The position numbers and the translations under genes are program-made. The notes below the pieces were generated by a model. The model was not told the origin of the DNA and ran no database searches. It saw nothing but the letters and a program-made list of their open reading frames with translations. Positions 1,756-63,817 of a stretch of DNA of 64,000 nt are shown piece by piece. How positions within the stretch are numbered: the first letter of the stretch is position 1; each line of letters begins with the position of its first letter. The stretch is from positions 64,001 through 128,000 of the IMG/VR virus record IMGVR_UViG_3300031566_000001; one strand, given 5' to 3'. The DNA is from a virus.

Positions 1756-1818
1756 CTTTTGCGCAAAAGTCAGGAGGCGGTTTTCTTTTGCCAGCAAAAG
1801 GTTCTAGTGACCTATAAT
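1756..1818 (+). promoter_or_regulatory. Bipartite palindromic element, copy 1, with promoter
   Basis: CTTTTGCGCAAAAG (1756-1769), 15 bp, CTTTTGCCAGCAAAAG (1785-1800); TTGCCA-N19-TATAAT (1813-1818). Confidence 0.8.
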
Positions 1819-2029
1819 GAGAATGGAGGTGGGTATGGATGAAGAAAAGCTATTCAACCGGGAAGTCGATGACGTGCTCTATGATGCCCGTGGTTGTCTC
1901 AGGGACCCCGACGTTTACCCTGACAGCCTTGAGGGGCGGGCTGAGCTGGCCCGTTGGCAGGAGGCAGAAGCGATGGGGATGGACCCGGCCACGGTGGACC
2001 TGCTGGACTCCGGCCAGTTGGGGTTGTGA
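1817..2029 (+). CDS. Hypothetical protein
   Basis: ORF with SD GGAGG before the ATG at 1835, the likely true start. Confidence 0.6.
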   Translation: MRMEVGMDEEKLFNREVDDVLYDARGCLRDPDVYPDSLEGRAELARWQEAEAMGMDPATVDLLDSGQLGL

Positions 2030-2040
2030 GCTGTGAGTAT

Positions 2041-2135
2041 GGGGGCGGCGGTGGGTCAGCAGTGAGATCGGCTATGGCGTCACGGGTCGGACCAACGCCA
2101 CTGTGAAAACGTAGGCCGGGCCTCCCCCCGCCTCC
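2041..2135 (+). ncRNA. Candidate structured intergenic RNA or attenuator
   Basis: Outer stem GGGGGCGG (2041-2048)/CCGCCTCC (2128-2135), inner stem TGGCGT/ACGCCA, followed by TTATTT. Confidence 0.35.
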
Positions 2136-2156
2136 TTATTTAGACAGGAGGAAACG

Positions 2157-2498
2157 ATGACAGAAGAAGCCGAAAACCCAGAGGTGGTAGAGTACCCGTT
2201 CGTCCTGCGGTCCTTGACACTGCGGGACGTGGGCAAGTTGCCCGGCCCGGTGCAGTATTCGTCTAGGGAGTACGGCACCCCTTATGCGACTTTCGACGTG
2301 AACTGGTCCGCGGAGGTCGTGGTGGAGGCCAACCCTGATGACCCGCTAGTGGAGGTTAGTGCGGCCCTGGGGGCGTTGATGAAGTGGTTTCAGAGCACCG
2401 GGGCGAAGATGGGCCGTGAGGTCCTGGCTGATATTGAGTTGAGCAAGCAAGAGGCCCGGCTGGGCATAGTCCCTAGCGTGGATGCCAACGAGCTATAG
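2157..2498 (+). CDS. Hypothetical protein
   Basis: ORF with strong SD AGGAGG. Confidence 0.7.
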   Translation: MTEEAENPEVVEYPFVLRSLTLRDVGKLPGPVQYSSREYGTPYATFDVNWSAEVVVEANPDDPLVEVSAALGALMKWFQSTGAKMGREVLADIELSKQEARLGIVPSVDANEL

Positions 2499-2509
2499 GA
2501 GGAAACGAC

Positions 2510-3544
2510 ATGGCAAAGGTACAGGAGACTGAAGGACGAGGGGATTTCGAGCATGTGCCGCAGGGTGACTACATCGCCTTCTTCGCAGGGTTCGTGCCCC
2601 GCGACGAGAACACGATGAAGCCGCGAATCAACCAGTTTGATGAGTGGAAGGACGGGGTGAAGACAGGTGGTACGGCGCCTGCTCTGCTGTGGAAGTTCGA
2701 GATCATCCACCCCAAGGAGCACCGCGGCGAGGCGCCCACGGGCAAATCATGGTGGAAGGCCCTACGGGTGGTCCAGAACGAGAAGTCCGAGAACGTCGTA
2801 CAGGTGGACCGTGTGGGCAATCTGATCACTAACATCGTCAAGTGGTCTGAGCACTGCGGTATAGAATGGGCTGCAGACCTGGGGGCGGCACTGCCTGACA
2901 AAGGCCAGATCACTGACCAGATGATCGTGGAGGCCCTGGAGAGGGCGCTTTTGGACCATGCCCGTGAGGGTGCGCTTGTGGTCATCAAGATCGGTGAGAC
3001 CGGTTACGTGGATACCAAGGATCATAACAGCGACTGCGTGATGCCTTTACCTGCGGGGCCACAGGCCAAGAAAGTTGAAGGCATCAAGTACGAGGTGCCG
3101 GACTTCTACGGTGATGCGGGGATGTCAGGTGTGGAAGCAGGAAAGTGGGCCGATGAGGATCTGGACGCGATGCGGGGTTACCTTCGTGAAACCCTACAGC
3201 CGGCCCTGATTACAGGGGAGTCGGTGTTGACTATCATGGATGCCAAGGAACGGGAGTGGCTGGCCCAGGCATTGTCTGCGGGCGGTTCAGATTACGCTCT
3301 GCGGGCACAGACCTTCGCTAACAGTATGATCGCGGCGGGGTTCGATGCGGTGGATACCAGCCTGTTGATTAGTCTGGTGGCCCTGGTCACAGGCGCACCG
3401 GCCAAGGGTAGGATTGTGGATTCACTGGCCCCGCCGCAGCTTGAGGCAGCTGTGGAGCACCTGGTGGTCTTTGCGCGGGCCTTAGGCAAGGAAGTCCCTG
3501 ATGTGCCTGTGCGGGATGCCGATGAGGGTGAGATACCCTTCTAG
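2510..3544 (+). CDS. Phage single-stranded DNA-binding-like protein
   Basis: N-terminal DFEHVPQGDY (DUF669/gp2.5-like start), acidic tail ending DEGEIPF, located in the replication module. Confidence 0.6.
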   Translation: MAKVQETEGRGDFEHVPQGDYIAFFAGFVPRDENTMKPRINQFDEWKDGVKTGGTAPALLWKFEIIHPKEHRGEAPTGKSWWKALRVVQNEKSENVVQVDRVGNLITNIVKWSEHCGIEWAADLGAALPDKGQITDQMIVEALERALLDHAREGALVVIKIGETGYVDTKDHNSDCVMPLPAGPQAKKVEGIKYEVPDFYGDAGMSGVEAGKWADEDLDAMRGYLRETLQPALITGESVLTIMDAKEREWLAQALSAGGSDYALRAQTFANSMIAAGFDAVDTSLLISLVALVTGAPAKGRIVDSLAPPQLEAAVEHLVVFARALGKEVPDVPVRDADEGEIPF

Positions 3545-3551
3545 GGGAGTT

Positions 3552-3592
3552 GGGGCAGGCGGAGGATTGCCTGCCCCGATCTTGCCTGTTTT
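3552..3592 (+). terminator. Intrinsic terminator-like hairpin
   Basis: GGGGCAGGC/GCCTGCCCC stem after the SSB stop, then ...CTGTTTT. Confidence 0.55.
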
Positions 3593-3610
3593 ACTGAGGA
3601 GGGGGAAGTG

Positions 3611-3808
3611 ATGTATGTTCAGATTAGGAAGAATGGACCTTGGCACATAGTTAGCCGGGGTAAAGATAGCGTTCTTTGGAGGGGAAGGGAATGCACCGCT
3701 TGCGGCATTCCACAGCCAGAGAGCTGGCCGGAGTTTGCTTGACCCACGATAAGCAGCAGCCCCCGCGAACCACTCTGCAAACGCTGCCTGAAGAGGAGGA
3801 AGAAGTGA
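3611..3808 (+). pseudogene. Small Zn-finger-like ORF interrupted by an in-frame TGA (3740-3742)
   Basis: MYVQIRKNGPWHIV...CTACG...EFA*PTISSSPREPLCKRCLKRRKK*. The second stop overlaps the next GTG start (GTGA). Confidence 0.5.
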
Positions 3809-4029
3809 GCGAGAGAGAGAAGATGGAGACCATAACACTAGATGAATTGTGCGACTTCGATGTGGTGCCCGCTGATGGGTGGTACATTGCCGGAGAAACT
3901 ATGGAAGTCTACAGCAGCGGCAGGCGCGTGGAGCTTGGAGAGAAGGTCTATTGCTGGAACGGTTGGGTCTGTGATGACGAAGAAGATGCCCGCAAGCTCA
4001 GCATGATGCTAGATCTGGGCACGATATAG
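3805..4029 (+). CDS. Hypothetical protein
   Basis: GTG start with SD AGGAGG, inside the ORF 3676-4029. Confidence 0.6.
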   Translation: MSEREKMETITLDELCDFDVVPADGWYIAGETMEVYSSGRRVELGEKVYCWNGWVCDDEEDARKLSMMLDLGTI

Positions 4030-4065
4030 GCGGACTCAGAGCCGGAGATGGACGGAGGATGAATC

Positions 4066-4284
4066 ATGACCATGAGCAAGAGGAAGATACTGGCGCGCCG
4101 CAACAGACTTCGCGGGACGCTATGCTCAGGGTGCAGACACAACTACTACAACTGGCCCAAGGCTGCGAGCCCTCGGGGAGATGTAGCGGTGGCCGATGAC
4201 TATTACTGCTGGCACCTACCGGACGTAGACCTGCGGAAGAAGGAGCCTTGCTGGGCGCGGTTCGTACCGGGCCAGTATCGTTGA
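4066..4284 (+). CDS. Hypothetical Cys-rich protein
   Basis: ORF with SD GGAGG and a CSGC motif. Confidence 0.55.
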   Translation: MTMSKRKILARRNRLRGTLCSGCRHNYYNWPKAASPRGDVAVADDYYCWHLPDVDLRKKEPCWARFVPGQYR

Positions 4285-4310
4285 CACCATCACTGCTACA
4301 GGAGGAAGAA

Positions 4311-4568
4311 GTGAGCACCGAGAGAGAACTGAGGGAAGCAATAGAAGATTATGATGTGAACATCGGCCTTGACCAGAGTGCCGTTGCATACGACGGGATA
4401 ATACAGGCCCTCGACGCCGCCCCCGACGGCCCGCAGATGGACCGGCTGGTGGAGTGGCTGGAGGAGAAGCGGACGACGCCAGCCAACACACCGGGAGACC
4501 GGGGCTGGGAGTCAGCATTTACGGTAGTGCTCCACCATATCGACGAGATGCAGGAGGAGCAGCCATGA
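4311..4568 (+). CDS. Hypothetical protein
   Basis: GTG start with SD AGGAGG; ATGA overlap with the next gene. Confidence 0.6.
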   Translation: MSTERELREAIEDYDVNIGLDQSAVAYDGIIQALDAAPDGPQMDRLVEWLEEKRTTPANTPGDRGWESAFTVVLHHIDEMQEEQP

Positions 4569-5038
4569 TCTTCAAACAGTGGAGGCAGGTACTCAACGGG
4601 ACCAAGACGCAGACGCGGCGGCTCAGAGGAAACAGAGATGTGTTCGACATGATGATGTGCAAGGAGCCATTCAGAGATACGGTGTTTCGGAAAGGCGTGG
4701 TGAAGTGGCAAGTTGGCCGCACCTACGCCTGCCAGCGTCCCGACGGCAAGACGATGGGGCGGACTCCTCCGCTGCGCAAGATACGGCGGGAGCGGTTGGG
4801 GGACATCTCGGACGCGGATTGCTACGCTGAGGGCATTTTGGAGGTCGAAGTCCTCGACCCGCTTTTGCGGCGGTTGGCTCACTATCCGTATCACCTTGTC
4901 TGCCCGCTGTGCGACGGAGCCTACGAAACGCCACAATCTGCCTACGCCTGCCTCTGGGACTGCTGCGGTGGGCGATGGGAGAATGACCAGAATGACGATA
5001 CGTGGGTGCTAGGGTTTGAATCGGGGTCGGGCCTCTAG
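4565..5038 (+). CDS. ASCH domain protein
   Basis: VLNGTKTQTRR and IRRERLGDISDADCYAEG are ASCH signature motifs. Confidence 0.8.
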   Translation: MIFKQWRQVLNGTKTQTRRLRGNRDVFDMMMCKEPFRDTVFRKGVVKWQVGRTYACQRPDGKTMGRTPPLRKIRRERLGDISDADCYAEGILEVEVLDPLLRRLAHYPYHLVCPLCDGAYETPQSAYACLWDCCGGRWENDQNDDTWVLGFESGSGL

Positions 5039-5091
5039 TGGAAACCTATTACTACTAGGGGACACTGCCCGGCCCCGAGAGGAGAGGGAGG

Positions 5092-5766
5092 ATGGATAAG
5101 GAATGGCTTGAGAGAAGGCTGTATAAGCGAGTGGGAACCATCTACGGTGTCCAAGAAAAGACTGAGGACGTTGACACCATCGCCGCCCAGCACGAGCAGG
5201 ATGTAGCGAGCTTGGTAGCGGTTCGTGATATGTACGCCATAGAGATAGAGGGTCTACAGGCGCAGGTGGCGGAGATGGGCGGGGCGCTGGAGTATACGCT
5301 TGTTCGGCTGAAGCCTCTCCTTGAACTAATGCGCGAAGACAGAAGGCCGACAGAGTGGGTGGAGAAGATAGAAAAGGCCCTCACCGGTGCGCCGAAGGTG
5401 CTCTATCGTGTTCTCGGTAAACTCGCAAATCTAGATCCGGAGTTGATTCCAGTTGTGCATATATGCCAGGGGCAACCCATAGATTTGTGCACGACACATC
5501 TATTTCACTATGGGAAGATAAGCGGTTCTCCTGTCGCTGTGCTAGTGCTTGAGTGTCCACCCAAGGGCGAACAGGGCTATAAGCGAGCCAGGGGCGTGAT
5601 CTCGCTGGGGGGCAAACGGCCAGAGGATGTGATAGCGGAGATGAGAGGTAGGCCCACGGAGAGCGAACAGGACTTCCCCGGGATCGAGGCGTTTGACGTG
5701 GAGCCGGATGGAAGAATCAAGCGCGTAGAGAGCGAACAGGAGGAGGCCACGGATGAGGCTAATTAA
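5092..5766 (+). CDS. Hypothetical protein
   Basis: 224-aa ORF with SD; internal ESEQ duplication. Confidence 0.65.
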   Translation: MDKEWLERRLYKRVGTIYGVQEKTEDVDTIAAQHEQDVASLVAVRDMYAIEIEGLQAQVAEMGGALEYTLVRLKPLLELMREDRRPTEWVEKIEKALTGAPKVLYRVLGKLANLDPELIPVVHICQGQPIDLCTTHLFHYGKISGSPVAVLVLECPPKGEQGYKRARGVISLGGKRPEDVIAEMRGRPTESEQDFPGIEAFDVEPDGRIKRVESEQEEATDEAN

Positions 5767-5950
5767 GCGCATTTGCGAGGGCTGTATTGGAGATGTGGGG
5801 ATTTGTCGGGAGAGGGGGATCATCAACAGACTAGAGAGCGTGAGGCGTGTGCTGTCAACCGAGTATACTGACGCCTTTGATTTGCTGGCGGGCATGGCGT
5901 CTTGTCCCAACAAGAAGAGCTTCAGGCGCGAGGAGGCCACTGATGACTAA
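5753..5950 (+). CDS. Hypothetical protein
   Basis: Starts at a GGAGGCCACNGATG junction. Confidence 0.6.
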   Translation: MRLIKRICEGCIGDVGICRERGIINRLESVRRVLSTEYTDAFDLLAGMASCPNKKSFRREEATDD

Positions 5951-11738: not shown

Positions 11739-12314
11739 ATGAACGGGGGGCTGGGTATGGATTCTCGGTTGTGGGCTATTCTGGTGGCTCTGGTGGTATT
11801 GTGTTGCTGCCCTGTGCCTGCGGTGGCAGGTATGGATCGTGGCGTGGAGGACCCCGTGCCGACCAACGTGTACCTGATGGCCTTGACGGTTCTGTACGAG
11901 GCCACGGGGCAGCCGGTGTTGGGGCAGGAGCTTGTGGCCCGCGTGGTGTTCAACCGGGTTGCCTGGATAGAGGCCGCCTACTTCGAGCAGGTAGTCTTTG
12001 CCGATGGGCAGTTCATGGCCTGGACTCCAGAGCGCAGATGGGCCTTCGCCCGTTGTCAGATCGAGCAGGACAGTGATCCCGCATGTTTTGACCGCATGGC
12101 CCTGGAGTGGCTAGGTTCTGCACCCGATGCCCGTGAGCGGTGGCTGGACCTGCTGGCCATGTCTATGGCGGTAGTGAACGGCGCGGCGGATCCGGTGGGC
12201 TGGGCTGGCGTGCGGTACTTCGACAATCCGCGGTTCTGGCCGGAGGGCGAGCCTCCGTGGGCGCCTGCGAAGGTGTTTGTGGGCCAAATTGGAGATCATT
12301 GCTTCTGGCGGTGA
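11739..12314 (+). CDS. SleB/CwlJ-like cell wall hydrolase (Hydrolase_2) with signal peptide
   Basis: LTVLYEATG...VARVVFNRV...GQF...YFDNP...QIGDHCF; hydrophobic N-terminus ending AVA. Confidence 0.8.
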   Translation: MNGGLGMDSRLWAILVALVVLCCCPVPAVAGMDRGVEDPVPTNVYLMALTVLYEATGQPVLGQELVARVVFNRVAWIEAAYFEQVVFADGQFMAWTPERRWAFARCQIEQDSDPACFDRMALEWLGSAPDARERWLDLLAMSMAVVNGAADPVGWAGVRYFDNPRFWPEGEPPWAPAKVFVGQIGDHCFWR

Positions 12315-12316
12315 GC

Positions 12317-12379
12317 CTTTTGTGCAAAAGCCGGGGTGACGGTTTCTTTTGCTGGCAAAGGGTTGGGCTGTGGCATGAT
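12317..12379 (+). promoter_or_regulatory. Bipartite palindromic element, copy 2
   Basis: CTTTTGTGCAAAAG (12317-12330), 15 bp, CTTTTGCTGGCAAAGG (12346-12361); TTGCTG-N19-CATGAT with a TG extension. Confidence 0.75.
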
Positions 12380-12395: not shown

Positions 12396-12596
12396 ATGCA
12401 GATTGAGGTCAAGGGCGGCAAGCCTGGTTACGTGATTCGGAGCGGAAAGGATGCCCTGGAGTGTGTGACCATAGTAGAGACCTTCGTGGATTCTGATGCG
12501 GCGTACAATACTGATTATGGCGCAGCGGCCAATGGCCTGGACCGCTGGCTGAAGCGGATGATAGCCGAGGAGGATAGTCATGGACACCAGAGATGA
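12396..12596 (+). CDS. Hypothetical protein
   Basis: ORF with a purine-rich SD. Confidence 0.55.
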   Translation: MQIEVKGGKPGYVIRSGKDALECVTIVETFVDSDAAYNTDYGAAANGLDRWLKRMIAEEDSHGHQR

Positions 12597-12831
12597 GTTC
12601 TGCGTGAAGTGCCGCCGCAAGATGCATGTGGCCAAGGTGGGCCAGGAGGTCCTGGAGCTGACTGAGAAGGGCACTCCGTACAGGCTCGCGGCTGGTGATG
12701 TGTTGGAGTGCCCTAAGTGTGGATATCAGGTCGTGACCCGCTTCGGCAAGGTCACTCCGCACTATGAGGCTGGATTCAATGAACTTGTGGGGCGTCTTCG
12801 CCGACGTGACCTGCTCCTGGAGGTGGTGTGA
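12580..12831 (+). CDS. Zn-ribbon protein
   Basis: CVKC...ECPKCG. Confidence 0.65.
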   Translation: MDTRDEFCVKCRRKMHVAKVGQEVLELTEKGTPYRLAAGDVLECPKCGYQVVTRFGKVTPHYEAGFNELVGRLRRRDLLLEVV

Positions 12832-13100: not shown

Positions 13101-13827
13101 CAGCATAACAATCAACTGGAAGGATTCTGTTTGGAATGTACCCCTGGGTAGCTGGGAGCCGGTGGATGCTGTGTCCATTCGCCCTGTCCCGGCCCGTGAT
13201 GGTTGTCGCTGCGGGTCTTGCCGGTTTCTGGATCGTGAGGCTGAGGGCTGGAGATGCGCCAACTTCGTGAATATCCTTGCAACGAGGGCACTAAAGGGTA
13301 TGAGCCCCGTCAGTCCGCAGATGCGGCTCATGGCGTGCCTGGATTGGGAGGGCTACCCACCCCGCAACCCCGGCTGGTTCGCCTGCCCGCTGTGGCTCTC
13401 TGGTGAGTCTATGTCTACACGGGCCTATCGTGAGGGCCATTTTGGGGAGTTCTTAACACTGATGGCCCTGGCTGGGGCCGGGGAGCCTCACACCGAGTAC
13501 CGTACCCATGAGGGATCACAGGCACAGGGCGACCTGGCGGAGCTGGAACGGGCCGGTGCTGATATGAGGCGGAAGGACAAATGGTGGAAACTTCTAGGTA
13601 CGTGGAATCTTCCGGTTGATGGCTATCCTGGCGCACCCCATCCGATGAGCGGCCTGGTCAGCTTTGGGAGTACCCTGTCCACCAAGGCTGCGAGTTCCTT
13701 CGGGGGACTGTTATCACTTGTCACTACGGATTATCTCACGCAGAGCGAAGGGGCTTCTGTGGAGGTGTCCCGTCATGCCAATTGCCGGTGTGCAATTGTT
13801 GATGATGTGGAGGATGAGCTGGAGTAG
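13093..13827 (+). CDS. Hypothetical protein
   Basis: ORF with SD; C-terminal HANCRC motif resembling the end of gpF/gp7 proteins. Confidence 0.55.
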   Translation: MVDSITINWKDSVWNVPLGSWEPVDAVSIRPVPARDGCRCGSCRFLDREAEGWRCANFVNILATRALKGMSPVSPQMRLMACLDWEGYPPRNPGWFACPLWLSGESMSTRAYREGHFGEFLTLMALAGAGEPHTEYRTHEGSQAQGDLAELERAGADMRRKDKWWKLLGTWNLPVDGYPGAPHPMSGLVSFGSTLSTKAASSFGGLLSLVTTDYLTQSEGASVEVSRHANCRCAIVDDVEDELE

Positions 13828-13841
13828 TCTTTGACCCCTAC

Positions 13842-13870
13842 TTGACAAGTTACAAACTATGCTGTACAAT
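13842..13870 (+). promoter_or_regulatory. Sigma70-type promoter upstream of the packaging genes
   Basis: TTGACA-N17-TACAAT. Confidence 0.75.
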
Positions 13871-16778: not shown

Positions 16779-16823
16779 TCTTTGCCAGCAAAGGAAACGC
16801 TGGCCTAGCCTTTTGTGCAAAAG
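16779..16823. promoter_or_regulatory. Bipartite palindromic element, copy 3 (inverted order)
   Basis: TCTTTGCCAGCAAAGG (16779-16794), 15 bp, CTTTTGTGCAAAAG (16810-16823), abutting the SD. Confidence 0.75.
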
Positions 16824-16832: not shown

Positions 16833-17228
16833 ATGGCGAGAGTAGAGATAGCGGGACACGGCCAGGATAGCAATACGCCCATCGGTGCGGTATTCAGTGA
16901 GCAGGGCATCATCGTGCCGCCTTATGATGACTTGGTTAGTTACGGGCCGACCGATGCGCCCGCTGTCAACAAGGCGATATACACGCCCAGTGCCAGCTTC
17001 CGGTTCATCCCTCAGTTGGTTGTGATGTCCTGTGAGGGGGCACAGATCTTCACTTTCGCCTGCGGGACCTGGCACATGACCATTTACATCTCTGGGCAGT
17101 CAGGGGGCACGGAGGTCATTCCCTTCGTCGGTGGGGGCCTGCGGCTGGCACGGCTGCCGTTGTTATTGACTACGCCCAACGCGGTGAATCACTACGTGGG
17201 CTTCATGGGTAGGCAGGTGGTGGAATAG
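16833..17228 (+). CDS. Putative virion structural protein
   Basis: Starts MARVEIAGHG; SD GGGGAG. Confidence 0.55.
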   Translation: MARVEIAGHGQDSNTPIGAVFSEQGIIVPPYDDLVSYGPTDAPAVNKAIYTPSASFRFIPQLVVMSCEGAQIFTFACGTWHMTIYISGQSGGTEVIPFVGGGLRLARLPLLLTTPNAVNHYVGFMGRQVVE

Positions 17229-35889: not shown

Positions 35890-35954
35890 GGTTTTTGCGC
35901 AAAAACCTGGAGCATCTTTTCTTTTGCGGGCAAAAGGTTCACGGGGGCGATAAT
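35890..35954 (+). promoter_or_regulatory. Bipartite palindromic element, copy 4
   Basis: TTTTTGCGCAAAAA (35892-35905), 15 bp, CTTTTGCGGGCAAAAG (35921-35936); TTGCGG-N19-GATAAT. Confidence 0.8.
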
Positions 35955-35982
35955 ATGGGCAAAAGAGTTCACGGAGGGCATC

Positions 35983-43147: not shown

Positions 43148-43210
43148 ACTTTTCGCCAAGTTGATGGTTCGCAGTTCTTTTGCCAGCAAAACATCGCCCT
43201 GGTGTATAAT
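43148..43210 (+). promoter_or_regulatory. Bipartite element, copy 5 (degenerate first box), with promoter
   Basis: ACTTTTCGCCAAGT, 15 bp, CTTTTGCCAGCAAAAC (43177-43192); TTGCCA-N19-TATAAT (43205-43210). Confidence 0.7.
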
Positions 43211-44343: not shown

Positions 44344-44379
44344 CCTTGATGTGTGTTTTGGGGCAGGGTCGGCATCGGC

Positions 44380-44442
44380 CTTTTGCACAAAAGAGCGAGC
44401 CATCCGTTCTTTTGCCAGCAAAAGGTTGAGTCTAACTATACT
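44380..44442 (+). promoter_or_regulatory. Bipartite element, copy 6, with promoter of the glycan cluster
   Basis: CTTTTGCACAAAAG (44380-44393), 15 bp, CTTTTGCCAGCAAAAG (44409-44424); TTGCCA-N19-TATACT. Confidence 0.8.
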
Positions 44443-44498
44443 AGGGGTGGTATAGTCGGCACGGTCCTGCCCCCCTCAGCCGTTCCCGGAGGAGTGAG

Positions 44499-45503
44499 AT
44501 GTCTAGCTACTGGAAGGACCGCCGGGTTATCTGCACGGGGGGATCGGGCTTTCTCGGCTCTCACCTGGTCGATGCCCTGAGGCGCTTGGATTGCAAGCCG
44601 TTTGTCCCCCGCTCCGGCCAGTACGATTTGCGGAGTGAAGAGGGCGTTATCAATATGTTCAACGATGCCATGGCGCTGTGGGGCCAGGAGGGGTGCCAAA
44701 CCCTGTTTCACCTCGCGGCGCTGTGTGGTGGTATCGGGTTCAATCAGAAGTTCCCCGCTCGGTTGTGGCATGACAATTTGCTGATGGGCATCCATCTCAT
44801 CAACACGGCGGCATTTTGCGGGGTGGAGAAGTTTGTGGGTGTGGGTACGGTGTGCTCATACCCGAAGCATACCCCGACGCCGTTCAATGAACAGTCCTTG
44901 TGGGACGGTTACCCTGAGGAGACCAATGCTCCTTACGGCCTCGCCAAGAAGGCGCTCCTGGTTGGCCTGCAGGCGTATGGGCAAGAGAGGCAATTAGAGT
45001 GGACCTACGTCATGCCCACGAACCTCTACGGGCCGCGGGATCACTTCGGGGCGCGGTCCCACGTCATCCCGGCCCTGATTGACAAGTTTCTACACGCCAA
45101 AGGGGAGCCTACGGTGTCTGTGTGGGGCACGGGCACGCCCACGCGCGACTTTCTGTACGTCAAGGACTGCGCTGCGGCGCTGCTCCTGGCGGGGGAGTTG
45201 CTTTCGGGAGGTCCGTACAACATCGGCTCAGGACGCGAAATCAGCATCGAGGACCTGGCACGCCTCATAGCGGACGCAGTGGGCTTCCGGGGTCAAATCT
45301 GCTTTGATGCCTTCAAGCCCGACGGCCAGCCACGCCGGGTGCTCGATAGTTCCAAGTTTATGAAACTAACAGAGTGGTCCCCACAGGTGGGGTTCGAGCA
45401 GGGATTGACTCAGACGGTGCAGTGGTATAGAGATTTACAGCAGGACGGCAAGCCTGAGTTGACCGGTGTGCGTGCTGAATCCGGTGGGTCGCCGTCGGTA
45501 TAG
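44499..45503 (+). CDS. fcl: GDP-L-fucose synthase
   Basis: TGGSGFLG, HLAALCGGIG.N, GTVCSYPK, PEETNAPYGLAK, PTNLYGP, SHVIPALI, WGTGTPTRDFLYV, KPDGQPRR. Confidence 0.93.
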   Translation: MSSYWKDRRVICTGGSGFLGSHLVDALRRLDCKPFVPRSGQYDLRSEEGVINMFNDAMALWGQEGCQTLFHLAALCGGIGFNQKFPARLWHDNLLMGIHLINTAAFCGVEKFVGVGTVCSYPKHTPTPFNEQSLWDGYPEETNAPYGLAKKALLVGLQAYGQERQLEWTYVMPTNLYGPRDHFGARSHVIPALIDKFLHAKGEPTVSVWGTGTPTRDFLYVKDCAAALLLAGELLSGGPYNIGSGREISIEDLARLIADAVGFRGQICFDAFKPDGQPRRVLDSSKFMKLTEWSPQVGFEQGLTQTVQWYRDLQQDGKPELTGVRAESGGSPSV

Positions 45504-53735: not shown

Positions 53736-53780
53736 CCTTTGCTGGCAAAAGGTTTGGGTGTGGTATATTTTGTGCAAAAG
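53736..53780. promoter_or_regulatory. Bipartite element, copy 7 (inverted order)
   Basis: CCTTTGCTGGCAAAAG (53736-53751), 15 bp, ATTTTGTGCAAAAG (53767-53780); TTGCTG-N19-TATATT. Confidence 0.75.
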
Positions 53781-53790: not shown

Positions 53791-54000
53791 ATGTTTGAGA
53801 TTTTTCAGGGCGTTATTCTTAAATCGGATTGCCGACTAATCATTGTGTTTCGTGATGAGGGGTCTATGCAGGCTGAGTTGATAACCCTCAATACTCATGG
53901 TCTGTTGGTCCATGCTGAAGGGGGCACTATGTATGTGCCTTGGACCTCAGTCAAGACTGTCGAGCTTCTTGATATTCTCGATGATTCTAGTGGGGAATAG
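53791..54000 (+). CDS. Small Sm/LSm-like hypothetical protein
   Basis: SD GGAGG; beta-rich with a YVPWTSVKTV end. Confidence 0.5.
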   Translation: MFEIFQGVILKSDCRLIIVFRDEGSMQAELITLNTHGLLVHAEGGTMYVPWTSVKTVELLDILDDSSGE

Positions 54001-57002: not shown

Positions 57003-58393
57003 TCTGCGCTGACTCTAGGGCTGCGCTGGCAGAGATAGAAGAGGGGAGCGTACAGTGCTGCATCACCTCTCCGCCATACTGGAGCCTCCGCAGGTACGGC
57101 GATGCAGCGGAGATGGTCTTTGGCGGCGATGCTGGCTGTGAGCATGAGTGGGGGCAGCACATTGTCAATCGGCGGGGCGCAGGCGGCGAGAGGGAATATG
57201 GCAGCTCTGATAGCGGTGTGGGCCGGGGGCCGGCACCCGAGTTGCCCTCCTCCAATATCTGCTCCCTCTGCGGCTGCTGGCGCGGTCAGTTCGGATTAGA
57301 GCCCACCCCCGAGATGTACGTGGAGCACATGCTGGACTTTTTGCGGGCAATATGGCGGGTGCTGAGGGATGATGGGACGCTGTGGCTGAATCTCGGGGAC
57401 TCTTATGCGAGTCAGGGGGGGGCTAAGACAGAAGCCTCATACGCCTCAGCAGGCACGGGCAATAGTGCCAATCGGACGCTGCGGGTTGATGCCCGGAGAC
57501 CACCCGGAGGCCTCAAGCCCAAGGACCTCGTGATGATCCCCTTCCGCGTGGCGTTGGCTGCGCAGGCAGACGGGTGGTGGGTGCGGTCGGTGATCATCTG
57601 GTCCAAGCCTAACCCCATGCCAGAGTCAGTGCGGGACAGGCCGACAACGGCGCATGAATACGTGTTCCTCTTGACGAAGAGCAAGACCTACTTCTACGAT
57701 GCCGATGCGATAAGGGAGCCATGTACCATGACGCCCCAGGCCAGGTTGACTCCACGAGACATGAAGAATGGCAAGGATAGCCAGCGGGCCGTTCACCGTA
57801 GACCACAATACCAGCTCCGAGATGAGCCAGGGGTAGAGGGCAACCCATTAGGCCGCAACAAGCGTACGGTCTGGGAGATAGCCACGGCCCCATATCCCGG
57901 CGCCCACTACGCAACATTTCCTCCCAAGCTAGTAGAGCCGATGATACTGACCACGCCCACGAAGGTCTGCGCTGAGTGCGGGGCTGGGTGGGAGAGGGTG
58001 GTTCAGAAGCCCGACATGAAGGAGCGACCAAAGCGCAACCAGCAGAAATACGGAGCAGAGCGCATCAATGTTGGCTGGGGTGACTACCCGCAGAGCGCGG
58101 GGCAGGAGTGGCAAAAGTGGCGCAACGAGAACCCTGACGTAACCCTTGGCTTCCGCCCCACCTGCTCCTGTGATGCTGAGACCAAGCCCGCCGTCATCTT
58201 AGACCCCTTCTGTGGTAGGGGCACCGTTCTCAAAGAGGCAAGAGCGCATGGCCGGGACTGGATAGGCATAGACGTCGATCCTCAATCTATCAAGCTGGCG
58301 GAGGAATGGCTGGGGCTAGGGGAGGTTACCTATGAGATTGACGAAGAGCATTGGATACAGCCGCAATTAGTCAATGAGGAGTCAGCACAATGA
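56996..58393 (+). CDS. DNA methyltransferase (N4-C/N6-A, beta class)
   Basis: CITSPPYW, LWLNLGDSY, IIWSKPNPMPESV, HYATFP, LDPFCGRGT. Confidence 0.92.
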   Translation: MLICADSRAALAEIEEGSVQCCITSPPYWSLRRYGDAAEMVFGGDAGCEHEWGQHIVNRRGAGGEREYGSSDSGVGRGPAPELPSSNICSLCGCWRGQFGLEPTPEMYVEHMLDFLRAIWRVLRDDGTLWLNLGDSYASQGGAKTEASYASAGTGNSANRTLRVDARRPPGGLKPKDLVMIPFRVALAAQADGWWVRSVIIWSKPNPMPESVRDRPTTAHEYVFLLTKSKTYFYDADAIREPCTMTPQARLTPRDMKNGKDSQRAVHRRPQYQLRDEPGVEGNPLGRNKRTVWEIATAPYPGAHYATFPPKLVEPMILTTPTKVCAECGAGWERVVQKPDMKERPKRNQQKYGAERINVGWGDYPQSAGQEWQKWRNENPDVTLGFRPTCSCDAETKPAVILDPFCGRGTVLKEARAHGRDWIGIDVDPQSIKLAEEWLGLGEVTYEIDEEHWIQPQLVNEESAQ

Positions 58394-59652
58394 TCTTTTC
58401 CAATCGTCACGAGGTGGAGACACACCTGGCTGAGCAGGCCGATGGGGGTGTCATCGTCGAAGTGGGCTGCGGCGTAGGCGATGGCCTGGTGGCCCTGCTC
58501 AACGGCACGCGGTACGGTAGACTTTTGCCTGTGTATGCTGTCGATCCTTATACTCCCTACGTGGACAAGCTGGGGGGCACCTACGGGCCGGAGAGCAAGC
58601 AGGAGGCCCTGGATAAGGTGGTGGGCACGGGGTTGGGGCGGTTGGTGGCCTTCGTCGAGGAGGACGGCGTACTGGTGGGCGAAAATTGGGACTTGCCTAC
58701 GGCCCTGGTGTGGATTGACGTCAGCATGGAGTATGACGGTCTCAAATGCGTCTGGGACGCCTGGGCGGACAAGGTCATGGAGGACGGACATATCGCTATC
58801 GCGGGCCTGGGTTATAGCAGCCTGGGTACAGCGCGGGTGATGCAGGAGGCCGTTGACTCGGGGGACTTCGTGCGGGTGCTGTCGGAGCAGGACAGGGTGG
58901 CGGTACTACGCAGGGTGCCCCGGAATAGGCGGGCCGTGTTCTACATCGTGGATGGTGAACCCTATGCTGAGGAGGCGGCTTACAGTGCGTCCAGTGTCAA
59001 GGAGCACATGCCCGGCGTGGAGACCTTTCTGTTTGCGGTGGGTGGCACAGGGGCCAGGGAGAGCATCGACCACGTAGTGCTCTTGCCGCCTCGGGAGAGC
59101 GAGCTGTGGTACCTGGACAGCACGCGGTACTTCAACCAGGCGGTGGCGCACCTCCACGAGTACAACCGTCTTTTGTACCTTGACACGGATACCTGGGTGG
59201 CCTGGGACTGTTTGGATATGTGGTGGCTCCTAGAGCAGTTTGACGTGTGCCTGGGGCACAGTGCGGGCCGGGAGGCCATGCCTTCAGCGATTGGGACGCC
59301 CCCGGCGTTCACTACCCTGTCTATCGGGGTTAGTTTATTCCGCAACAACGCGGAGGTCCGGGCTACGCTGGCGGACTGGCTGGCGTTCTACGAGAAGTAC
59401 CAGGGCATCTACGGCGACAATGATGAGAGTCCTTTAAGGGATGTGCTGTGGCTGAATCGGCAGGGGCTGAAAATGTATATCCTGCCCCCTGAGTACAACG
59501 TCCGAGCTGGGTTTGGGTGCTGGCTCTACGGTCGGGCTAGGATAGTTCATGCTCGGCTGCCTCGGTTGAGGCATGTAGCAGAGCAGTTGAATGAGCACAC
59601 GTCTATGCGTTTGTGGCACGATGGTGAGTTCTTGTGGTGGCATCAGAAGTGA
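58390..59652 (+). CDS. Methyltransferase fused to a GT-A glycosyltransferase
   Basis: VEVGCGVG...AVDPY, then LYLDTD, DESPLR and LPPEYN. Confidence 0.75.
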   Translation: MIFSNRHEVETHLAEQADGGVIVEVGCGVGDGLVALLNGTRYGRLLPVYAVDPYTPYVDKLGGTYGPESKQEALDKVVGTGLGRLVAFVEEDGVLVGENWDLPTALVWIDVSMEYDGLKCVWDAWADKVMEDGHIAIAGLGYSSLGTARVMQEAVDSGDFVRVLSEQDRVAVLRRVPRNRRAVFYIVDGEPYAEEAAYSASSVKEHMPGVETFLFAVGGTGARESIDHVVLLPPRESELWYLDSTRYFNQAVAHLHEYNRLLYLDTDTWVAWDCLDMWWLLEQFDVCLGHSAGREAMPSAIGTPPAFTTLSIGVSLFRNNAEVRATLADWLAFYEKYQGIYGDNDESPLRDVLWLNRQGLKMYILPPEYNVRAGFGCWLYGRARIVHARLPRLRHVAEQLNEHTSMRLWHDGEFLWWHQK

Positions 59653-59665
59653 AAGGTGGTGAAGG

Positions 59666-59944
59666 ATGGACAGCAACGTCTTAACCCGAGGCATAATTCC
59701 CCTGAGGCGCATCAAGCGCCTGCGTAGGTGCATGAACCCCAGTTGCCGCTTCGTGGTCGGCGCGGGCAAGATGGCCTTGGAGAGCACCAACATCGGTGAG
59801 TTCGCGCGGTTGACCTGCCCTAAGTGCGGAGCACTGCATGTGTTCAACCCCATCTCTACTGTGAGGCCTGATGCTGAGCGGCACATCTTCGTGGTCCGTG
59901 ACCGGGGTGGTCAGGTAGAGCATATTTTCCCGAGGGTGCAATGA
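59666..59944 (+). CDS. Zn-ribbon protein
   Basis: CMNPSC...CPKCG. Confidence 0.6.
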   Translation: MDSNVLTRGIIPLRRIKRLRRCMNPSCRFVVGAGKMALESTNIGEFARLTCPKCGALHVFNPISTVRPDAERHIFVVRDRGGQVEHIFPRVQ

Positions 59945-60390
59945 GGCGGCGCTACTTTGAGTGGGATTACGTTAGTAACCGCATGACTGAGTGGGCTCGC
60001 GTGGGGCACTGCTGCCAGTGCGCCGCGTGTTGTCAGAACAGCATCGGCTTCAAGTTTGAGAGCAGCAAGCTCTATGAAGCGAAGAAATCGGGCAGTTACT
60101 ACACCACTGGCAAGGGCATCTGGCAGGAGGTCCGCGTAGGGGGCCGGTACAGGCACTTCTTCCAAATGGAGTACGTGGCTGCCAAAGGGAAGGGGTGCGC
60201 CAGCCTGGAGCGTGGCTTGTGCGAGGAGTATGAGCACCGTACTTGGATTTGCCGGGAGTGGCCCTTCTCGCCGCGCTGCATAGAAGCCACCTCGGAGTGT
60301 ACTTATGGATTCCGCGAGGTTGATCGTAGGTCTTTTGTGGTCGTCGTCCCTGAGAAGGACGAGGGCGATTTCGTACATGTGCCATTGTAG
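59941..60390 (+). CDS. YkgJ-family cysteine cluster protein
   Basis: CCQCAACC...C..L...LC..YEHR..ICREWP. Confidence 0.75.
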   Translation: MRRRYFEWDYVSNRMTEWARVGHCCQCAACCQNSIGFKFESSKLYEAKKSGSYYTTGKGIWQEVRVGGRYRHFFQMEYVAAKGKGCASLERGLCEEYEHRTWICREWPFSPRCIEATSECTYGFREVDRRSFVVVVPEKDEGDFVHVPL

Positions 60391-60399
60391 GAGGGTGTT

Positions 60400-61059
60400 A
60401 TGGTCACTAAGGCCATCATGCTCATCCACGTCTTCCGGACCGGTGGTTACATGGTGCAGGGGGTCCTACGGAAGGTCCCTGGCCTGGTGATGGTCTCGGA
60501 TAGGCCCACGGAGCACCTGACCTATGATCAGATGGCTGTGGTGTGCGCGAGAGAACGCATGGGGAACCCGCCCGCTATGGTTTTTATCCGCAACCCTTTT
60601 GACTGGTATGTCTCTATGTGGTGCTGGGTCAACATGGCGCCGAACATGCCTCCAGTCTCGGAGTTCCGCGAATACCTGGAGGTCATCCGGGTGCGGCGCT
60701 ATGGCACCACGGGGACGGGCCGCAACTATAGCAGGCTCTCCGAGCACTGGGCTGACATGGGGGCAGGCAAGGCGCAGTGGGAGGGGCGCTTTGAGACTCT
60801 ACGGGAGGACTTCATGGACATCATGCTCAAGGTCATGCCCAGCCTGGTGAACGAGAAGATGTTAGGGGACCTCATGGCCAAGGAACCCATCTATCACCCC
60901 AGCAGGCATCCTCAGACAGGTAGGCATCCTGGGGACTATCGGCAATACTACACCCCGGAGACAAGGGCATTGGTCGAGGAGTGGGACAGTGAGCTTCTAG
61001 AGCGGTTCGGTTACACTTTTGAGGAGAAGGTAGATGATATACCCAATCCCGGTGCCTGA
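60400..61059 (+). CDS. Sulfotransferase family 2-like protein
   Basis: IHVFRTGG, IRNPFDWYVS, RFETLREDF, DYRQYY...FGYTF. Confidence 0.8.
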   Translation: MVTKAIMLIHVFRTGGYMVQGVLRKVPGLVMVSDRPTEHLTYDQMAVVCARERMGNPPAMVFIRNPFDWYVSMWCWVNMAPNMPPVSEFREYLEVIRVRRYGTTGTGRNYSRLSEHWADMGAGKAQWEGRFETLREDFMDIMLKVMPSLVNEKMLGDLMAKEPIYHPSRHPQTGRHPGDYRQYYTPETRALVEEWDSELLERFGYTFEEKVDDIPNPGA

Positions 61060-61927
61060 TGAGTTCCGCCCGGCCAGCCAGGGTTACACTATGCCGCCGC
61101 ACTGCCCGCCGGAGGGGTACGGCGTGGAGCAGGACTTTGACGCTTGGTTACGGACGCAAGGGGAGCTTTTGACTGATTCCGCGGAGGCCGACTGGCTGTA
61201 CCTCCCGGTGTTCTGGAACCGGCTCTTTATTGCCACCTGGAAGTGGGCGCAGGATGAGGCCGCCATAGCCCGCTGCGCCGATTGGCTGGCGGCTCTCAGG
61301 GATAGTTTGGGCGGCTTTGAGAGGGTGTTCACCGTCTGTGAATGGGACCTGACCACGGAGCGGCAGGAGCTGGGCACGGACGGGCTGACTGTGTTCACGG
61401 CGGGGCGTCGGGATCGCGCAGGCCTTGATATACCGTTGCTCTGTGCCCCACATGGCGTCCCGCCGGTTTCATACGGCAAGCAATACCTGGCGTCATTTGT
61501 GGGCAACATTGGGACGTCAGGCTGGCGTCAGGGTATGTTGGAGGCCCTGGAGGGCTACGGCGGGGTCCTCATCGAGCACGCACAGAAGGGGCCAGCCTAT
61601 TTCTGTGATGTGATGACCAAGAGCTACGTGGCCCTGGCCCCCAGGGGTCACCGGGGGCAGAGCTTCCGGTTCTACGAGGCCATGGACATGGGTGTGGCCC
61701 CGGTCCTGATCGGTGATATGGATACCCGGCCCTTTAAGAATTGGGTCAATTGGGACTCATGCTCTTACTACGTTCCTGACGCCTCGGAACTTCCCGGCTT
61801 TATTGACAACCTGGACCTGGAGGACGCGTTACGCAAGGGCGCGGAGGCGGCACGGGTATACCATGAGTGTCTGCGGTTCGGGCGGTGGTGCATGTTTGTG
61901 GTGCCTGAGCTGCTGAGCGTGCCGTAA
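61034..61927 (+). CDS. Exostosin/GT47 family glycosyltransferase
   Basis: EADWLYLPV and LAPRG...SFRFYEAM..G..PVLI. Confidence 0.85.
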   Translation: MIYPIPVPDEFRPASQGYTMPPHCPPEGYGVEQDFDAWLRTQGELLTDSAEADWLYLPVFWNRLFIATWKWAQDEAAIARCADWLAALRDSLGGFERVFTVCEWDLTTERQELGTDGLTVFTAGRRDRAGLDIPLLCAPHGVPPVSYGKQYLASFVGNIGTSGWRQGMLEALEGYGGVLIEHAQKGPAYFCDVMTKSYVALAPRGHRGQSFRFYEAMDMGVAPVLIGDMDTRPFKNWVNWDSCSYYVPDASELPGFIDNLDLEDALRKGAEAARVYHECLRFGRWCMFVVPELLSVP

Positions 61928-61932
61928 CTCCT

Positions 61933-61999
61933 GCCACCTTGCCAGGGGTGGCGCGTTTCCTCCTTTTGGGGGCGGGTGGGGCCGGGCCTGCCCGCCCCC
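61933..61999 (+). terminator. Tandem hairpins ending the glycan operon
   Basis: GCCACCTT/GGGGTGGC and GGGGGCGGGTGGG/CCTGCCCGCCCCC. Confidence 0.55.
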
Positions 62000-62201
62000 T
62001 CCTATAAGGATTTCGGCCCGGTTTTCCCTCTTGGTTGGTATGTAAATGGCGCTTTTCCTGTTTATCCGCGACCCTGCCCCCAAACGTCACCAGAGACACC
62101 CAGGTCACCCAGGGCGGTGTTGGGGTGTGAATAGGTGGCTTGATATCCCCAAATGCTTAGAGCGGCTTGTGGTGAATCATGTTAGAATACTAAACTGGTA
62201 C

Positions 62202-62230
62202 TTGACAAAATATAAACGATGTGTTATAAT
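62202..62230 (+). promoter_or_regulatory. Consensus sigma70/sigmaA promoter (probable early promoter)
   Basis: TTGACA-N17-TATAAT with extended TG and AT-rich upstream sequence. Confidence 0.9.
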
Positions 62231-62287
62231 ATAGGTAAGATGAGGAACCAGAGAGCAGAGTAACAGGATACCACAGAGGAGGAGACG

Positions 62288-62521
62288 ATGGCAGAGAGAA
62301 CGGATTACCCAAGGAACCTAGCTGAGATTGCAATACAGGGCGCTATTGCCCAGCTTGGTCAGGCAGATAGCCTCTTGCAGAGGTATCAGGCTGAGTACGA
62401 CCTTCTTCACCACGAATTGGGTGATGATGGCGGCACGGAAGCCGCGCCAGCGCGCCATGCGGTGGAACAGGCCCTCAATCGTCTGGAATATGCCTTGCAG
62501 GAGACTAAGCAACTCTCATAG
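62288..62521 (+). CDS. Hypothetical early protein
   Basis: SD GGAGG; first ORF after the promoter. Confidence 0.7.
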   Translation: MAERTDYPRNLAEIAIQGAIAQLGQADSLLQRYQAEYDLLHHELGDDGGTEAAPARHAVEQALNRLEYALQETKQLS

Positions 62522-62591
62522 CCGAAACTGGGGTGGAGGCCCCGGTCACCCGCGATGCCGCCGTGCGGGTCCGATGAGGCGATGGGCGGCG
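62521..62591 (+). ncRNA. Type II hammerhead ribozyme with pseudoknot (core CCGAUGA)
   Basis: GCC-GAAA-CTGGGG/CCCCGG-TC-ACCCGC/GCGGGT-CCGATGA-GGC; loop I GCCGCC pairs with the 3' tail GGCGGC. Confidence 0.8.
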
Positions 62592-62605
62592 AGAGGAGGC
62601 AACAC

Positions 62606-63268
62606 ATGAAAATCCTGGCAACTGATGAGCAGAGTCTTGCACGCTGGCAGCGCCTACGCCCTACACCCAAGCAGATGCTCCGGATGGGCACCAATAAGAA
62701 GACATTTCACTGCGTGCGCTTTGGGCAGCTGGAGGCCTGGGGCAACGGGTTCTTCCTGCTGGTGGGGAACTCGCCGGACGTGCCTATGGAGGATATGACC
62801 CAGCGCATGCAGCGGTTCTCGGACTGGTCTGACATGAAGGACCGGCTGCTGACGCCGGGGGCTTGCCCTGTGGAGCCGCTGCTGTACCTGGAGGCTGACC
62901 GCTACAGCGTGCAGGAGCGCCGCTTGCTGGTGATGGAGATGCGGTCGCCCACGGACAGCGATGTGATCATGGAGCACCTTACCGTCAATGCAACCATGGC
63001 GCTCTTCATAGAACGTGAGTGCAGGGCGCGGTTCCCCGAGGACTGGATATTGGGCTGGCGGGGCAACCTGTCGGCGGAGGCCAGGATTCACGGGTGCGCC
63101 AAGGTACATCCCAAGCCATTGACGTATTGCGTAAGGGGTCCGGGAGCTGGCTATACCGCTGCTGGCGTGCTGATGCCCAGGACGTGGGGGAGTCAGTTGG
63201 TGAGCAAGGATGGTAGTGTGGCGCTCCAGTATGATGTGACCCGCAGGGTTTGTTATCGAGACGCTTGA
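62606..63268 (+). CDS. Hypothetical protein
   Basis: SD AGGAGG right after the ribozyme. Confidence 0.7.
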   Translation: MKILATDEQSLARWQRLRPTPKQMLRMGTNKKTFHCVRFGQLEAWGNGFFLLVGNSPDVPMEDMTQRMQRFSDWSDMKDRLLTPGACPVEPLLYLEADRYSVQERRLLVMEMRSPTDSDVIMEHLTVNATMALFIERECRARFPEDWILGWRGNLSAEARIHGCAKVHPKPLTYCVRGPGAGYTAAGVLMPRTWGSQLVSKDGSVALQYDVTRRVCYRDA

Positions 63269-63284
63269 TGAAAGGGGATAGAAG

Positions 63285-63527
63285 ATGACTGGCGCTGAGG
63301 TGATTGTATACGGGTTTGCTGCTGTTGGGTTCATAATAGTACTCTGCGTAGCACTAGGGGCTACAGAGGTAGTCGCCGAAGGTATGGTTGAGGATCGCAG
63401 GGAACAAGCTGAAATAGATACTCGGAAGGTGATTCAGGAACTTGAGATAGCCCTGCGCCACGCACGTCAGCCAGAGCACATTCTACTGCCCGCTATGATG
63501 GAGGTGAACGATGTCGCACATAGTTGA
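63285..63527 (+). CDS. Hypothetical membrane protein
   Basis: N-terminal TM helix. Confidence 0.6.
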   Translation: MTGAEVIVYGFAAVGFIIVLCVALGATEVVAEGMVEDRREQAEIDTRKVIQELEIALRHARQPEHILLPAMMEVNDVAHS

Positions 63528-63771
63528 TCCGCGCAATGTGAGGCCGGGGGACCTGAAGCCTGGCGATGTAATGATAAGAACGGTGGCGCTTCATGTGTTG
63601 CCGGACTACACGGGAGGCCGGTTGATGTACCCGATGTACCTGTGCCCGTGGCCGGATTCATCCCTTGTAGATGGTGTGCCCCAGGGCGCACGCATGGAGG
63701 GCAAGCCTGAGACCATGCAAGAGATATTCCCGGTGGTGGGCAATGCTGGGGCCAAGCCGGACCCGATGTGA
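63511..63771 (+). CDS. Hypothetical protein
   Basis: SD GGAGGTG. Confidence 0.6.
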   Translation: MSHIVDPRNVRPGDLKPGDVMIRTVALHVLPDYTGGRLMYPMYLCPWPDSSLVDGVPQGARMEGKPETMQEIFPVVGNAGAKPDPM

Positions 63772-63772
63772 T

Positions 63773-63817
63773 GTTTTGCTGGCAAAGGAAAGTATGGGCT
63801 GCGCTTTTGCGCAAAAG
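63773..63817. promoter_or_regulatory. Bipartite element, copy 8 (inverted order)
   Basis: GTTTTGCTGGCAAAGG (63773-63788), 15 bp, CTTTTGCGCAAAAG (63804-63817), abutting the SD. Confidence 0.75.

Follow-up and report, generated by a model that had tools for sequence, protein, structure and literature searches.

A two-palindrome cassette linked to -10-like hexamers in a clade of uncultured siphophages

What is the role of a pair of short palindromes that recurs, always at the same distance, between the genes of a phage? This question is raised by a 64,000-nucleotide stretch of DNA (the window, positions 64001-128000 of the 143,142-bp IMG/VR virus record IMGVR_UViG_3300031566_000001), in which eight sites, all in intergenic gaps, combine one palindrome, box A (TTTTGYRCAAAA), with another, box B (TTTTGCNNGCAAAA, of the pattern TTTTGC-NN-GCAAAA). 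An earlier note on the window, made from the letters alone, had described five of these sites as reading A-B and three as reading B-A, and all eight were confirmed with their coordinates when they were re-read. It appears moderately probable that this cassette is a clade-specific promoter/operator acting on duplex DNA, in which box B would replace the -35 element and box A would be a cooperative second site.

The record has a GC content of 59%, with genes all on one strand, and carries a siphophage gene set (large terminase, tape measure, Dit-like tail protein, DnaB helicase, DnaC-like loader, and exonuclease), as well as RuvC, endolysins, DNA methylases, and a large glycan island. Comparison of the record with itself revealed two syntenic copies, genomes of ~75 kb each with 70-94% nucleotide identity, offset by 73-77 kb and joined head to tail. 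The first copy (positions 1 to ~77.4 kb) looks complete, and the second (77.4-143.1 kb) is related and incomplete; they meet in a 300-bp stretch of 90% identity near window positions 13430-13850 (genome 77.4-77.85 kb, where genome positions, here and below, are those of the record). The 143-kb record is probably two phage genomes concatenated by assembly, and a third relative is present as separate contigs. The window sites starting at 1756 and 12317 (with the base before box A counted) belong to one genome and the remaining six to the second. The element had been called genome-wide, which holds in the sense that each genome has about nine sites, while the window itself spans the junction of two genomes. 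Having two related genomes in one record, we could use it as a built-in comparison of cassette conservation.

Box geometry and the -10 hexamer

Box A has seven exact matches in the window against 0.11 expected, and box B has eight matches with at most one mismatch against 0.07 expected, so that the twin boxes are far beyond chance. The cassette is a compact unit of 43 bp. The gap from the 12-mer to the 14-mer is 17 bp, or 15 bp when the conserved flanking C and G are included, and it is in this latter counting that the previously described fixed distance of 15 bp holds; the dyad centres of the two boxes are 30 bp apart at every window site. When box A and box B were each searched separately over the 143-kb record, 14 A-like words with at most two mismatches were found. 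For 12 of them, all 11 exact words among these, a partner box B is centred exactly 30 bp away. The two remaining words are a one-mismatch word beside a variant box B and a two-mismatch word with no partner. More than half of the record's TTTTGC and GCAAAA hexamers are inside cassettes, the others match the background frequency, and outside cassettes no TTTTGC copy is intergenic. Two distinct palindromes, box A of 12 bp (14 bp with its flanks) and box B of 14 bp (16 bp), recur at about nine sites per genome, namely four A-B, one with a degenerate box A, one with box B only, and three B-A. In one variant of box B, TTTTGCTCCCAAAA, the palindrome is broken in the right half. This variant is present at genome 32233, 62228, and 139612, and these three sites are the ones with a weak or absent box A. 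A ninth B-like word in the window, TTTTGCGGGCAATA (57339-57352), is located within a DNA methylase gene with neither a box A nor a -10 and is probably due to chance.

Box B is strictly linked to a -10-like hexamer. In six window sites such a hexamer lies exactly 13 nt after box B, which places TTGCNN 19 bp upstream of it, as the earlier note had read. All 11 of the A-B or B-only sites in the record have a -10-like hexamer 13 nt past box B, and among the distinct A-B sites, those of relatives included, 29 of 29 have nAnnnT exactly at this offset (TAnnnT in 83%; the hexamers include TATAAT 11 times, TATGAT 5, TATACT 4, and TATGCT 3). No other offset was enriched for a -10-like hexamer. The distance from the -10 to the Shine-Dalgarno (SD) sequence is variable (0, 5-7, or 17-18 nt), so that the hexamer is tied to box B rather than to the gene start.

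A TTGACA-like -35 at 17 +/- 1 bp was not found at any cassette site, where the hexamer at 17 bp is GCNNGC and the sole TTGnnn candidate is the TTGCNN at 19 bp from the -10. With the -10 hexamer set at positions -12 to -7, box B covers about -39 to -26 with its centre at -32.5. The centre of box A falls at about -62.5 in A-B sites, and in B-A sites box A extends from about -8 to +4. The two plain TTGACA promoters with 17-bp spacing that had been noticed in the window were located at 13842 and 62202 (13842-13870 and 62202-62230), and further perfect or near-perfect TTGACA-17-TATAAT promoters are found at genome 415, 1448, 52377, 62283, and 136079. The TTGACA-17 promoters of the record precede only TnpB/HNH-type (selfish) or variable, genome-specific genes and never the conserved phage modules, suggesting that the cassette is the phage's own promoter type and that the phage's own units would all depend on B-box promoters.

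The eight window sites are listed below; L numbers are handles of individual sequence stretches, here those of relatives described in the next section.

1757-1818, plus strand: A-B cassette with box A 1757-1768, a 17-bp spacer ending in TTTC, box B 1786-1799, 13 nt, and the -10 hexamer TATAAT 1813-1818; followed by GGAGG and the ATG (1835) of a conserved acidic protein of 64 amino acids (aa); counterparts at genome 139583 (ortholog) and in L037, L049, L057, L067, L082, and L128.
12318-12379, plus strand: A-B cassette with box A 12318-12329, box B 12347-12360, and the -10 hexamer CATGAT 12374-12379; upstream of small zinc (Zn)-ribbon genes and the terminase module.
16780-16822, plus strand: B-A (inverted) cassette with box B 16780-16793 and box A 16811-16822 abutting the SD, ATG at 16833; no -10-like hexamer (AGCCTT at the 13-nt offset); between terminase-side genes and the head module; counterparts at genome 4762 (ortholog) and in L047, L051, and L056.
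35893-35965, plus strand: A-B cassette with box A 35893-35904, box B 35922-35935, and the -10 hexamer GATAAT 35949-35954; between the tape measure gene and the distal-tail (Dit-like) gene; counterparts at genome 24954 (ortholog) and in L030, L066, and L071.
43149-43210, plus strand: cassette with a degenerate box A 43149-43160, box B 43178-43191, and the -10 hexamer TATAAT 43205-43210; upstream of lysis genes; ortholog at genome 32233, where box A is likewise weak or absent.
44381-44442, plus strand: A-B cassette with box A 44381-44392, box B 44410-44423, and the -10 hexamer TATACT 44437-44442; upstream of the glycan gene island (epimerase at 44499); counterparts at genome 33445 (ortholog) and in L042 and L074.
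53737-53779, plus strand: B-A cassette keeping a -10, with box B 53737-53750, the hexamer TATATT 53764-53769, which stands at the usual 13-nt offset and runs into box A (53768-53779), and after these the SD and ATG at 53791; counterparts at genome 42989 (ortholog, TATCAT) and in L033, L035, L040, L050, and L076.
63774-63816, plus strand: B-A cassette without a -10, with box B 63774-63787 and box A 63805-63816 abutting the SD, ATG at 63828; counterparts at genome 54660 (ortholog) and in L013, L025, L043, and L080.

Several of these sites have further features of their own. An extra half-site, GCAAAAG (35959-35965), lies just downstream of the -10 of the putative tail promoter and is kept at genome 25020 and in the three relatives with this site; it may be a third contact point for the putative binder. 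The glycan-island cassette is bracketed by GGGGCAGG (44360-44367) and CCTGCCCC (44466-44473), and the matching places of the other genome hold GGGGCGGGG and CCCCGCTCCCC, a compensatory change. The paired words may reflect long-range pairing in read-through RNA or a hairpin formed by the 57-nt leader. The 64-aa protein encoded at window 1835-2026 is very acidic, with an isoelectric point (pI) of 4.1, is present in five relatives at 52-66% identity, and is invariably the first gene after the best-conserved A-B site. Just past the acidic open reading frame (ORF) behind the A-B cassette of stretch L130, a sequence that resembles a tRNA, but with some 30 nt inserted, is found at 11872-11974 (genome 139872-139974); it scores 27.6 bits with the Rfam tRNA model, slightly under the 29-bit cut-off, and ARAGORN calls no tRNA there.

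Conservation, inversion and distribution

The cassettes of the two joined genomes occupy orthologous positions with matching orientation at all eight shared sites. Between the two genomes box A is 75-92% identical, box B 84-93%, and the -10 97%. The spacer between the boxes reaches only 32% identity in A-B sites and 62% in B-A sites, with an invariant length, which bears out, for the A-B sites, the previous description of its sequence as not conserved.

Relatives were collected by one exact-pattern scan of metagenomes, which returned 79 stretches; the pattern itself fixed both boxes and the distance between them. About 50 of the 79 carry the same cassette, with GC contents of 0.55-0.66 and from several sample series; after removal of duplicates, 29 distinct A-B and 25 distinct B-A sites remained, the record's own included. 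Columns outside the search pattern are conserved as well, namely a C before box A, a G after it, G.T after box B, and a TTTC directly next to box B on its A-facing side (1.8-2.3 bits). These asymmetric flanks invert along with the whole cassette in B-A sites, so that the cassette behaves as one unit. The genes flanking the sites in relatives are homologous to window genes (45-90% protein identity), indicating that the sites are orthologous and that position and orientation are kept across relatives; for example, the junction of site 12318, after a gene for a 230-aa hydrolase, recurs in 11 relatives. In 196 kb of relatives there was no additional A or B box at another spacing. The cassette spacing is kept in related phages, which the earlier note had treated as a point on which its proposal could fail. 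At the tape-measure/Dit junction, this phage and three relatives have an A-B cassette, and three other relatives have a B-A cassette followed by an extra small ORF, suggesting that the orientation can switch in evolution at nearly the same place.

The B-A sites differ from the A-B sites in their relation to the -10. In B-A sites the upstream stop codon lies 2-3 nt before box B and box A abuts the SD; a -10-like hexamer, at the 13-nt offset and overlapping box A, is present in only 7-9 of the 25. The group with this hexamer consists of site 53737 and its orthologues (TATATT or TATCAT), and there box A is placed where it could repress. The other two groups, located before the head module and before a MoxR/VWA module, have no -10 and lie inside operons, and no -10-like hexamers for a leftward (antisense) promoter were found on the opposite strand of B-A sites. 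It is possible that the sites without a -10 serve as auxiliary operators, read-through brakes, or polymerase-loading points. It had been proposed that box A represses wherever it covers the -10 or the SD; this may apply to about one third of the B-A sites, while the others have no -10-like hexamer.

In the genomes searched, the cassette appears to belong to a narrow phage clade rather than to a host regulon. Relatives reached in IMG/VR via alignment of the terminase had at most 48% identity, except for one near copy, and no A/B pair was found in 80 such loci (1.05 Mb) with terminases 29-48% identical. A search for the exact pair over 185,579 species genomes gave one family-type match, on a 2.5-kb phage-like contig binned with an Anaerolineae metagenome-assembled genome (MAG). 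This 3.1-Mb MAG has each box once, both on the phage-like contig, and the terminase was not found in it. Across 401 genomes of the same class, with at most two mismatches, there were 29 matches versus 15 for the reversed control, near the control level; the host of the clade may be Chloroflexota, which is weakly indicated. A look-alike in a Prevotella MAG, GTTTGCGCAAAA-N17-ATTTGCGAGCAAAA, has conserved flanks and at least 13 copies in one MAG (loci L086, L091, L097, L098, L103, L106, L109, L110, L115, and L118-L121); it was picked up through its likeness to the search pattern and appears unrelated to the cassette. Prevotella and Faecalibacterium/human-gut contig matches were set aside as unrelated, with other flanks and no -10. 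The phages carrying the cassette are a group of uncultured soil and sediment siphophages.

What the cassette may do

In the reading given at the outset, the core promoter would consist of TTTC, box B, 13 nt, and a -10 of the sigma-70 type. Box B, a palindrome of 14-16 bp centred at about -32.5 in place of the -35 hexamer, would be bound by a dimeric protein that replaces or aids the -35 contact of the host RNA polymerase. Box A, a shorter palindrome of the same CTTTTG half-sites, would offer a second binding place to this protein or to a partner protein, and the 30-bp distance, about three helical turns, would place both on roughly the same face and permit cooperative binding. With box A upstream, the pair could form an activating or stabilising complex; with box A downstream, it might dampen the promoter where a -10 exists and elsewhere leave a promoter-less binding site inside an operon. 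The sign of regulation may depend on orientation, and the binder could be one factor or two, an activator or a repressor. The view of the earlier note, a DNA-level module tied to promoters, is supported by the -10 link and by duplex-type conservation, and protein binding to it is predicted from these patterns. The MerR-type activation also suggested there is not borne out. MerR-type promoters share the 19 bp between TTGnnn and the -10, but the MerR dyad sits in the spacer at about -24, whereas the box B dyad lies over the -35 at about -32.5, and no MerR-family gene was detected in Pfam scans of about 95 ORFs.

The position of box B recalls two well-known phage systems. The lambda CII promoters (pRE, pI, and paQ) have a weak or absent -35; CII binds TTGC repeats that straddle the -35 with a centre at about -33, and the host sigma-70 reads a normal -10. 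The CII sites are direct repeats, TTGC-N6-TTGC, at three promoters of lambda, and we know of no second palindrome at 30 bp in CII promoters. Box B, in contrast, is an inverted repeat, TTGC-N2-GCAA, the cassette stands at every module, and no CII-like (helix-turn-helix, HTH) protein was found. In the middle promoters of T4, many of which are scattered over the genome, a MotA box with TTTGC centred at about -30 replaces the -35 next to a sigma-70-like -10, and AsiA appropriates sigma. A monomer binds the MotA box, which is asymmetric, whereas box B is palindromic, and neither a MotA nor an AsiA homologue was detected here. A fixed palindrome replacing the -35 at every promoter is typical of activator-dependent phage promoters such as those of CII and MotA, and favours this reading.

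No recognisable regulator has come to light for this role, as the earlier note had said of the window and as now holds for the whole 143-kb record, and this is among the points that weigh against such a reading. Pfam and PHROGs gave no regulator domains on about 95 ORFs (65 small ORFs as one alignment, then 30 more at loose E-values), the matches being Zn ribbons, replication genes, lysis genes, and one weak Q-like PHROG (E 0.0095). HTH_3, Sigma70_r4, and HTH_17 gave no match in six-frame searches over the entire record, ESM Atlas searches with the 134-aa and 83-aa Zn-ribbon proteins returned nothing informative, and sequence searches of the PDB with five candidate proteins gave no match. If a phage activator were needed everywhere, the programme could start only through basal activity of these promoters with the polymerase of the host, by way of TTGCNN at 19 bp, or through a factor that is injected or supplied by the host. 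The internal spacing of box A and that of box B also differ by 2 bp, a difference that a rigid dimer would not be expected to accommodate. About two thirds of the B-A sites have no -10, and the word promoter is not apt for them; a tight complex within the terminase-head operon would moreover be expected to hinder read-through.

The putative binder is probably phage-encoded and of an unrecognised family. Candidates among small conserved proteins include a 134-aa Zn-ribbon protein (92% identical between the two genomes), a 150-aa protein with a pI of 11, an 83-aa Zn-ribbon protein present in six relatives, and the 64-aa acidic first-gene protein, which, speculatively, might be an AsiA-like candidate. 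Genes of candidate proteins lie at 752-1201 and 1505-1906 of L130 and at window 12580-12828, 1835-2026, and 62606-63265. A phage RNA polymerase was also looked for, and no DFDGD-type motif was present in proteins of at least 300 aa from the window start to the record end, a span that includes nearly every gene once. A more specific version of the activator reading, in which one phage protein of unrecognised fold reads the CTTTTG half-site in both palindromes, bridges three helical turns, and runs the whole programme through the two-orientation cassette, seems rather unlikely in all its parts. Such a protein would replace the -35 contact at A-B sites, while at B-A sites without a promoter it would brake transcription or provide a point for loading polymerase.

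A serious, though less probable, alternative to the activator reading is a global repressor system, in which the host RNA polymerase would use TTGCNN as a mis-spaced -35, the palindromes would be operators, and the promoter-less B-A sites would be auxiliary operators, so that one or two repressors throttle or time every phage transcription unit. Box B over the -35 and, in B-A sites, box A over the -10/+1 are classic positions for occlusion, and the start-up problem would be solved, as first transcription could proceed without a phage activator. The format also resembles the KorA-KorB system of RK2/RP4, in which a 12-bp OA near the -10 and a 16-bp OB just upstream of the -35 recur at many promoters and the two proteins cooperate (PMC11790492). 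In both cases two palindromes of different length recur, but in RK2 the repressed promoters are of the consensus type, the OB-OA distance ranges from a few bp to kilobases, and KorB is a ParB-type CTP clamp (PMC11790492), whereas the cassette has a rigid 30 bp and an invertible order. No ParB/KorB-like clamp, KorA-like protein, or HTH protein was found in the record; the sole ParB_N match (E 5e-5, below the Pfam cut-off) is a fusion with a DNA methylase. It also speaks against repression that 40 of 40 promoter-type sites have no -35 at 17 +/- 1 bp and keep a palindrome at one invariant position, which is typical of activator-dependent phage promoters, and that box A at about -62.5 in A-B sites is in a non-occluding position.

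Two further explanations do not start from a DNA-binding regulator. That the conserved object is an RNA (or single-stranded DNA) hairpin, with an A:B stem of 12 bp, a 2-nt bulge, and a 17-nt loop serving as a T7 RNase III-like processing site, a stabiliser, or an insulator by the SD, is very improbable. The predicted A:B stems do reach -6 to -16 kcal/mol, the cassettes lie between stop codon and SD in a tightly packed one-strand genome, and the box A of the transcribed strand has the TG variant (G-U pair) 16 times versus 6 for the CA variant (A-C mismatch); however, A:B complementarity is automatic for two palindromes with common half-sites. Variants remain uncompensated (A1=A, A11=C, B9=C, B1=C in 44% of sites), pairing in the unforced flank columns does not exceed that of shuffled columns, B-only sites keep their -10 though they are unable to form the stem, and the invariant 13 nt to the -10 would be left unexplained. 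In addition, transcripts of A-B sites carry the asymmetric flank as UUUC and those of B-A sites carry it as GAAA, indicating that the conserved object is the duplex, and the inversion of flanks with the cassette, along with the lack of A:B covariation, likewise suggests recognition on duplex DNA. An intrinsic terminator was rejected, since the stem is AU-rich and is followed by GGTT or GGGAGG and not by a U run. Hardly more probable than the hairpin is a recombination or mobility module, of the PeSL-cassette or miniature inverted-repeat transposable element (MITE) kind, that marks the borders of exchangeable modules with promoter activity as a secondary trait. Several homology blocks between the genomes start or end at cassettes (e.g. 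24954, 43037/43039, and 62226), the two joined genomes have different genes downstream of their B-A sites, and the inversion with an extra small ORF at the tape-measure/Dit junction would fit as well. On the other hand, there are no terminal repeats or target duplications, the eight shared sites are all orthologous with their orientation kept, the strict -10 link is unexplained, and conserved shared sequence favours recombination anyway, so that the border effect may be a by-product.

Related elements and meaning for the clade

A literature search for the box sequences gave nothing relevant. The closest counterparts in kind are dispersed repeats of actinobacteriophages, such as the 17-bp repeat TGTTCGG-N3-CCGAACA of Cluster O (PMC4351075) and the start-associated sequences and their extended form (SAS/ESAS) of Cluster K (PMC3203893). 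Like the cassette, these are clade-specific intergenic inverted repeats close to gene starts and kept at orthologous genes, with binder and function unknown; they differ in being single palindromes or inverted repeats with a variable 4-13 bp spacer and in not being locked to a -10. Phage-specific promoter boxes and dispersed clade-specific palindromes are thus already known, and the cassette is most likely a new form of a phage control element whose general kind is familiar. It stands out in combining two palindromes of a common half-site with the 30-bp phasing, the 13 nt to the -10, the use of both orientations, and the presence at every module of a phage in which no recognisable regulator was found.

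The cassette opens no long-standing question. The 45-bp element is, however, a bait for a DNA-binding protein that current family libraries miss, and its rigid geometry with two orientations makes it a clean system for studying how one nucleoprotein complex acts according to the side that faces RNA polymerase. For the uncultured phage clade itself, the cassette gives a map of transcription units, about nine per genome.

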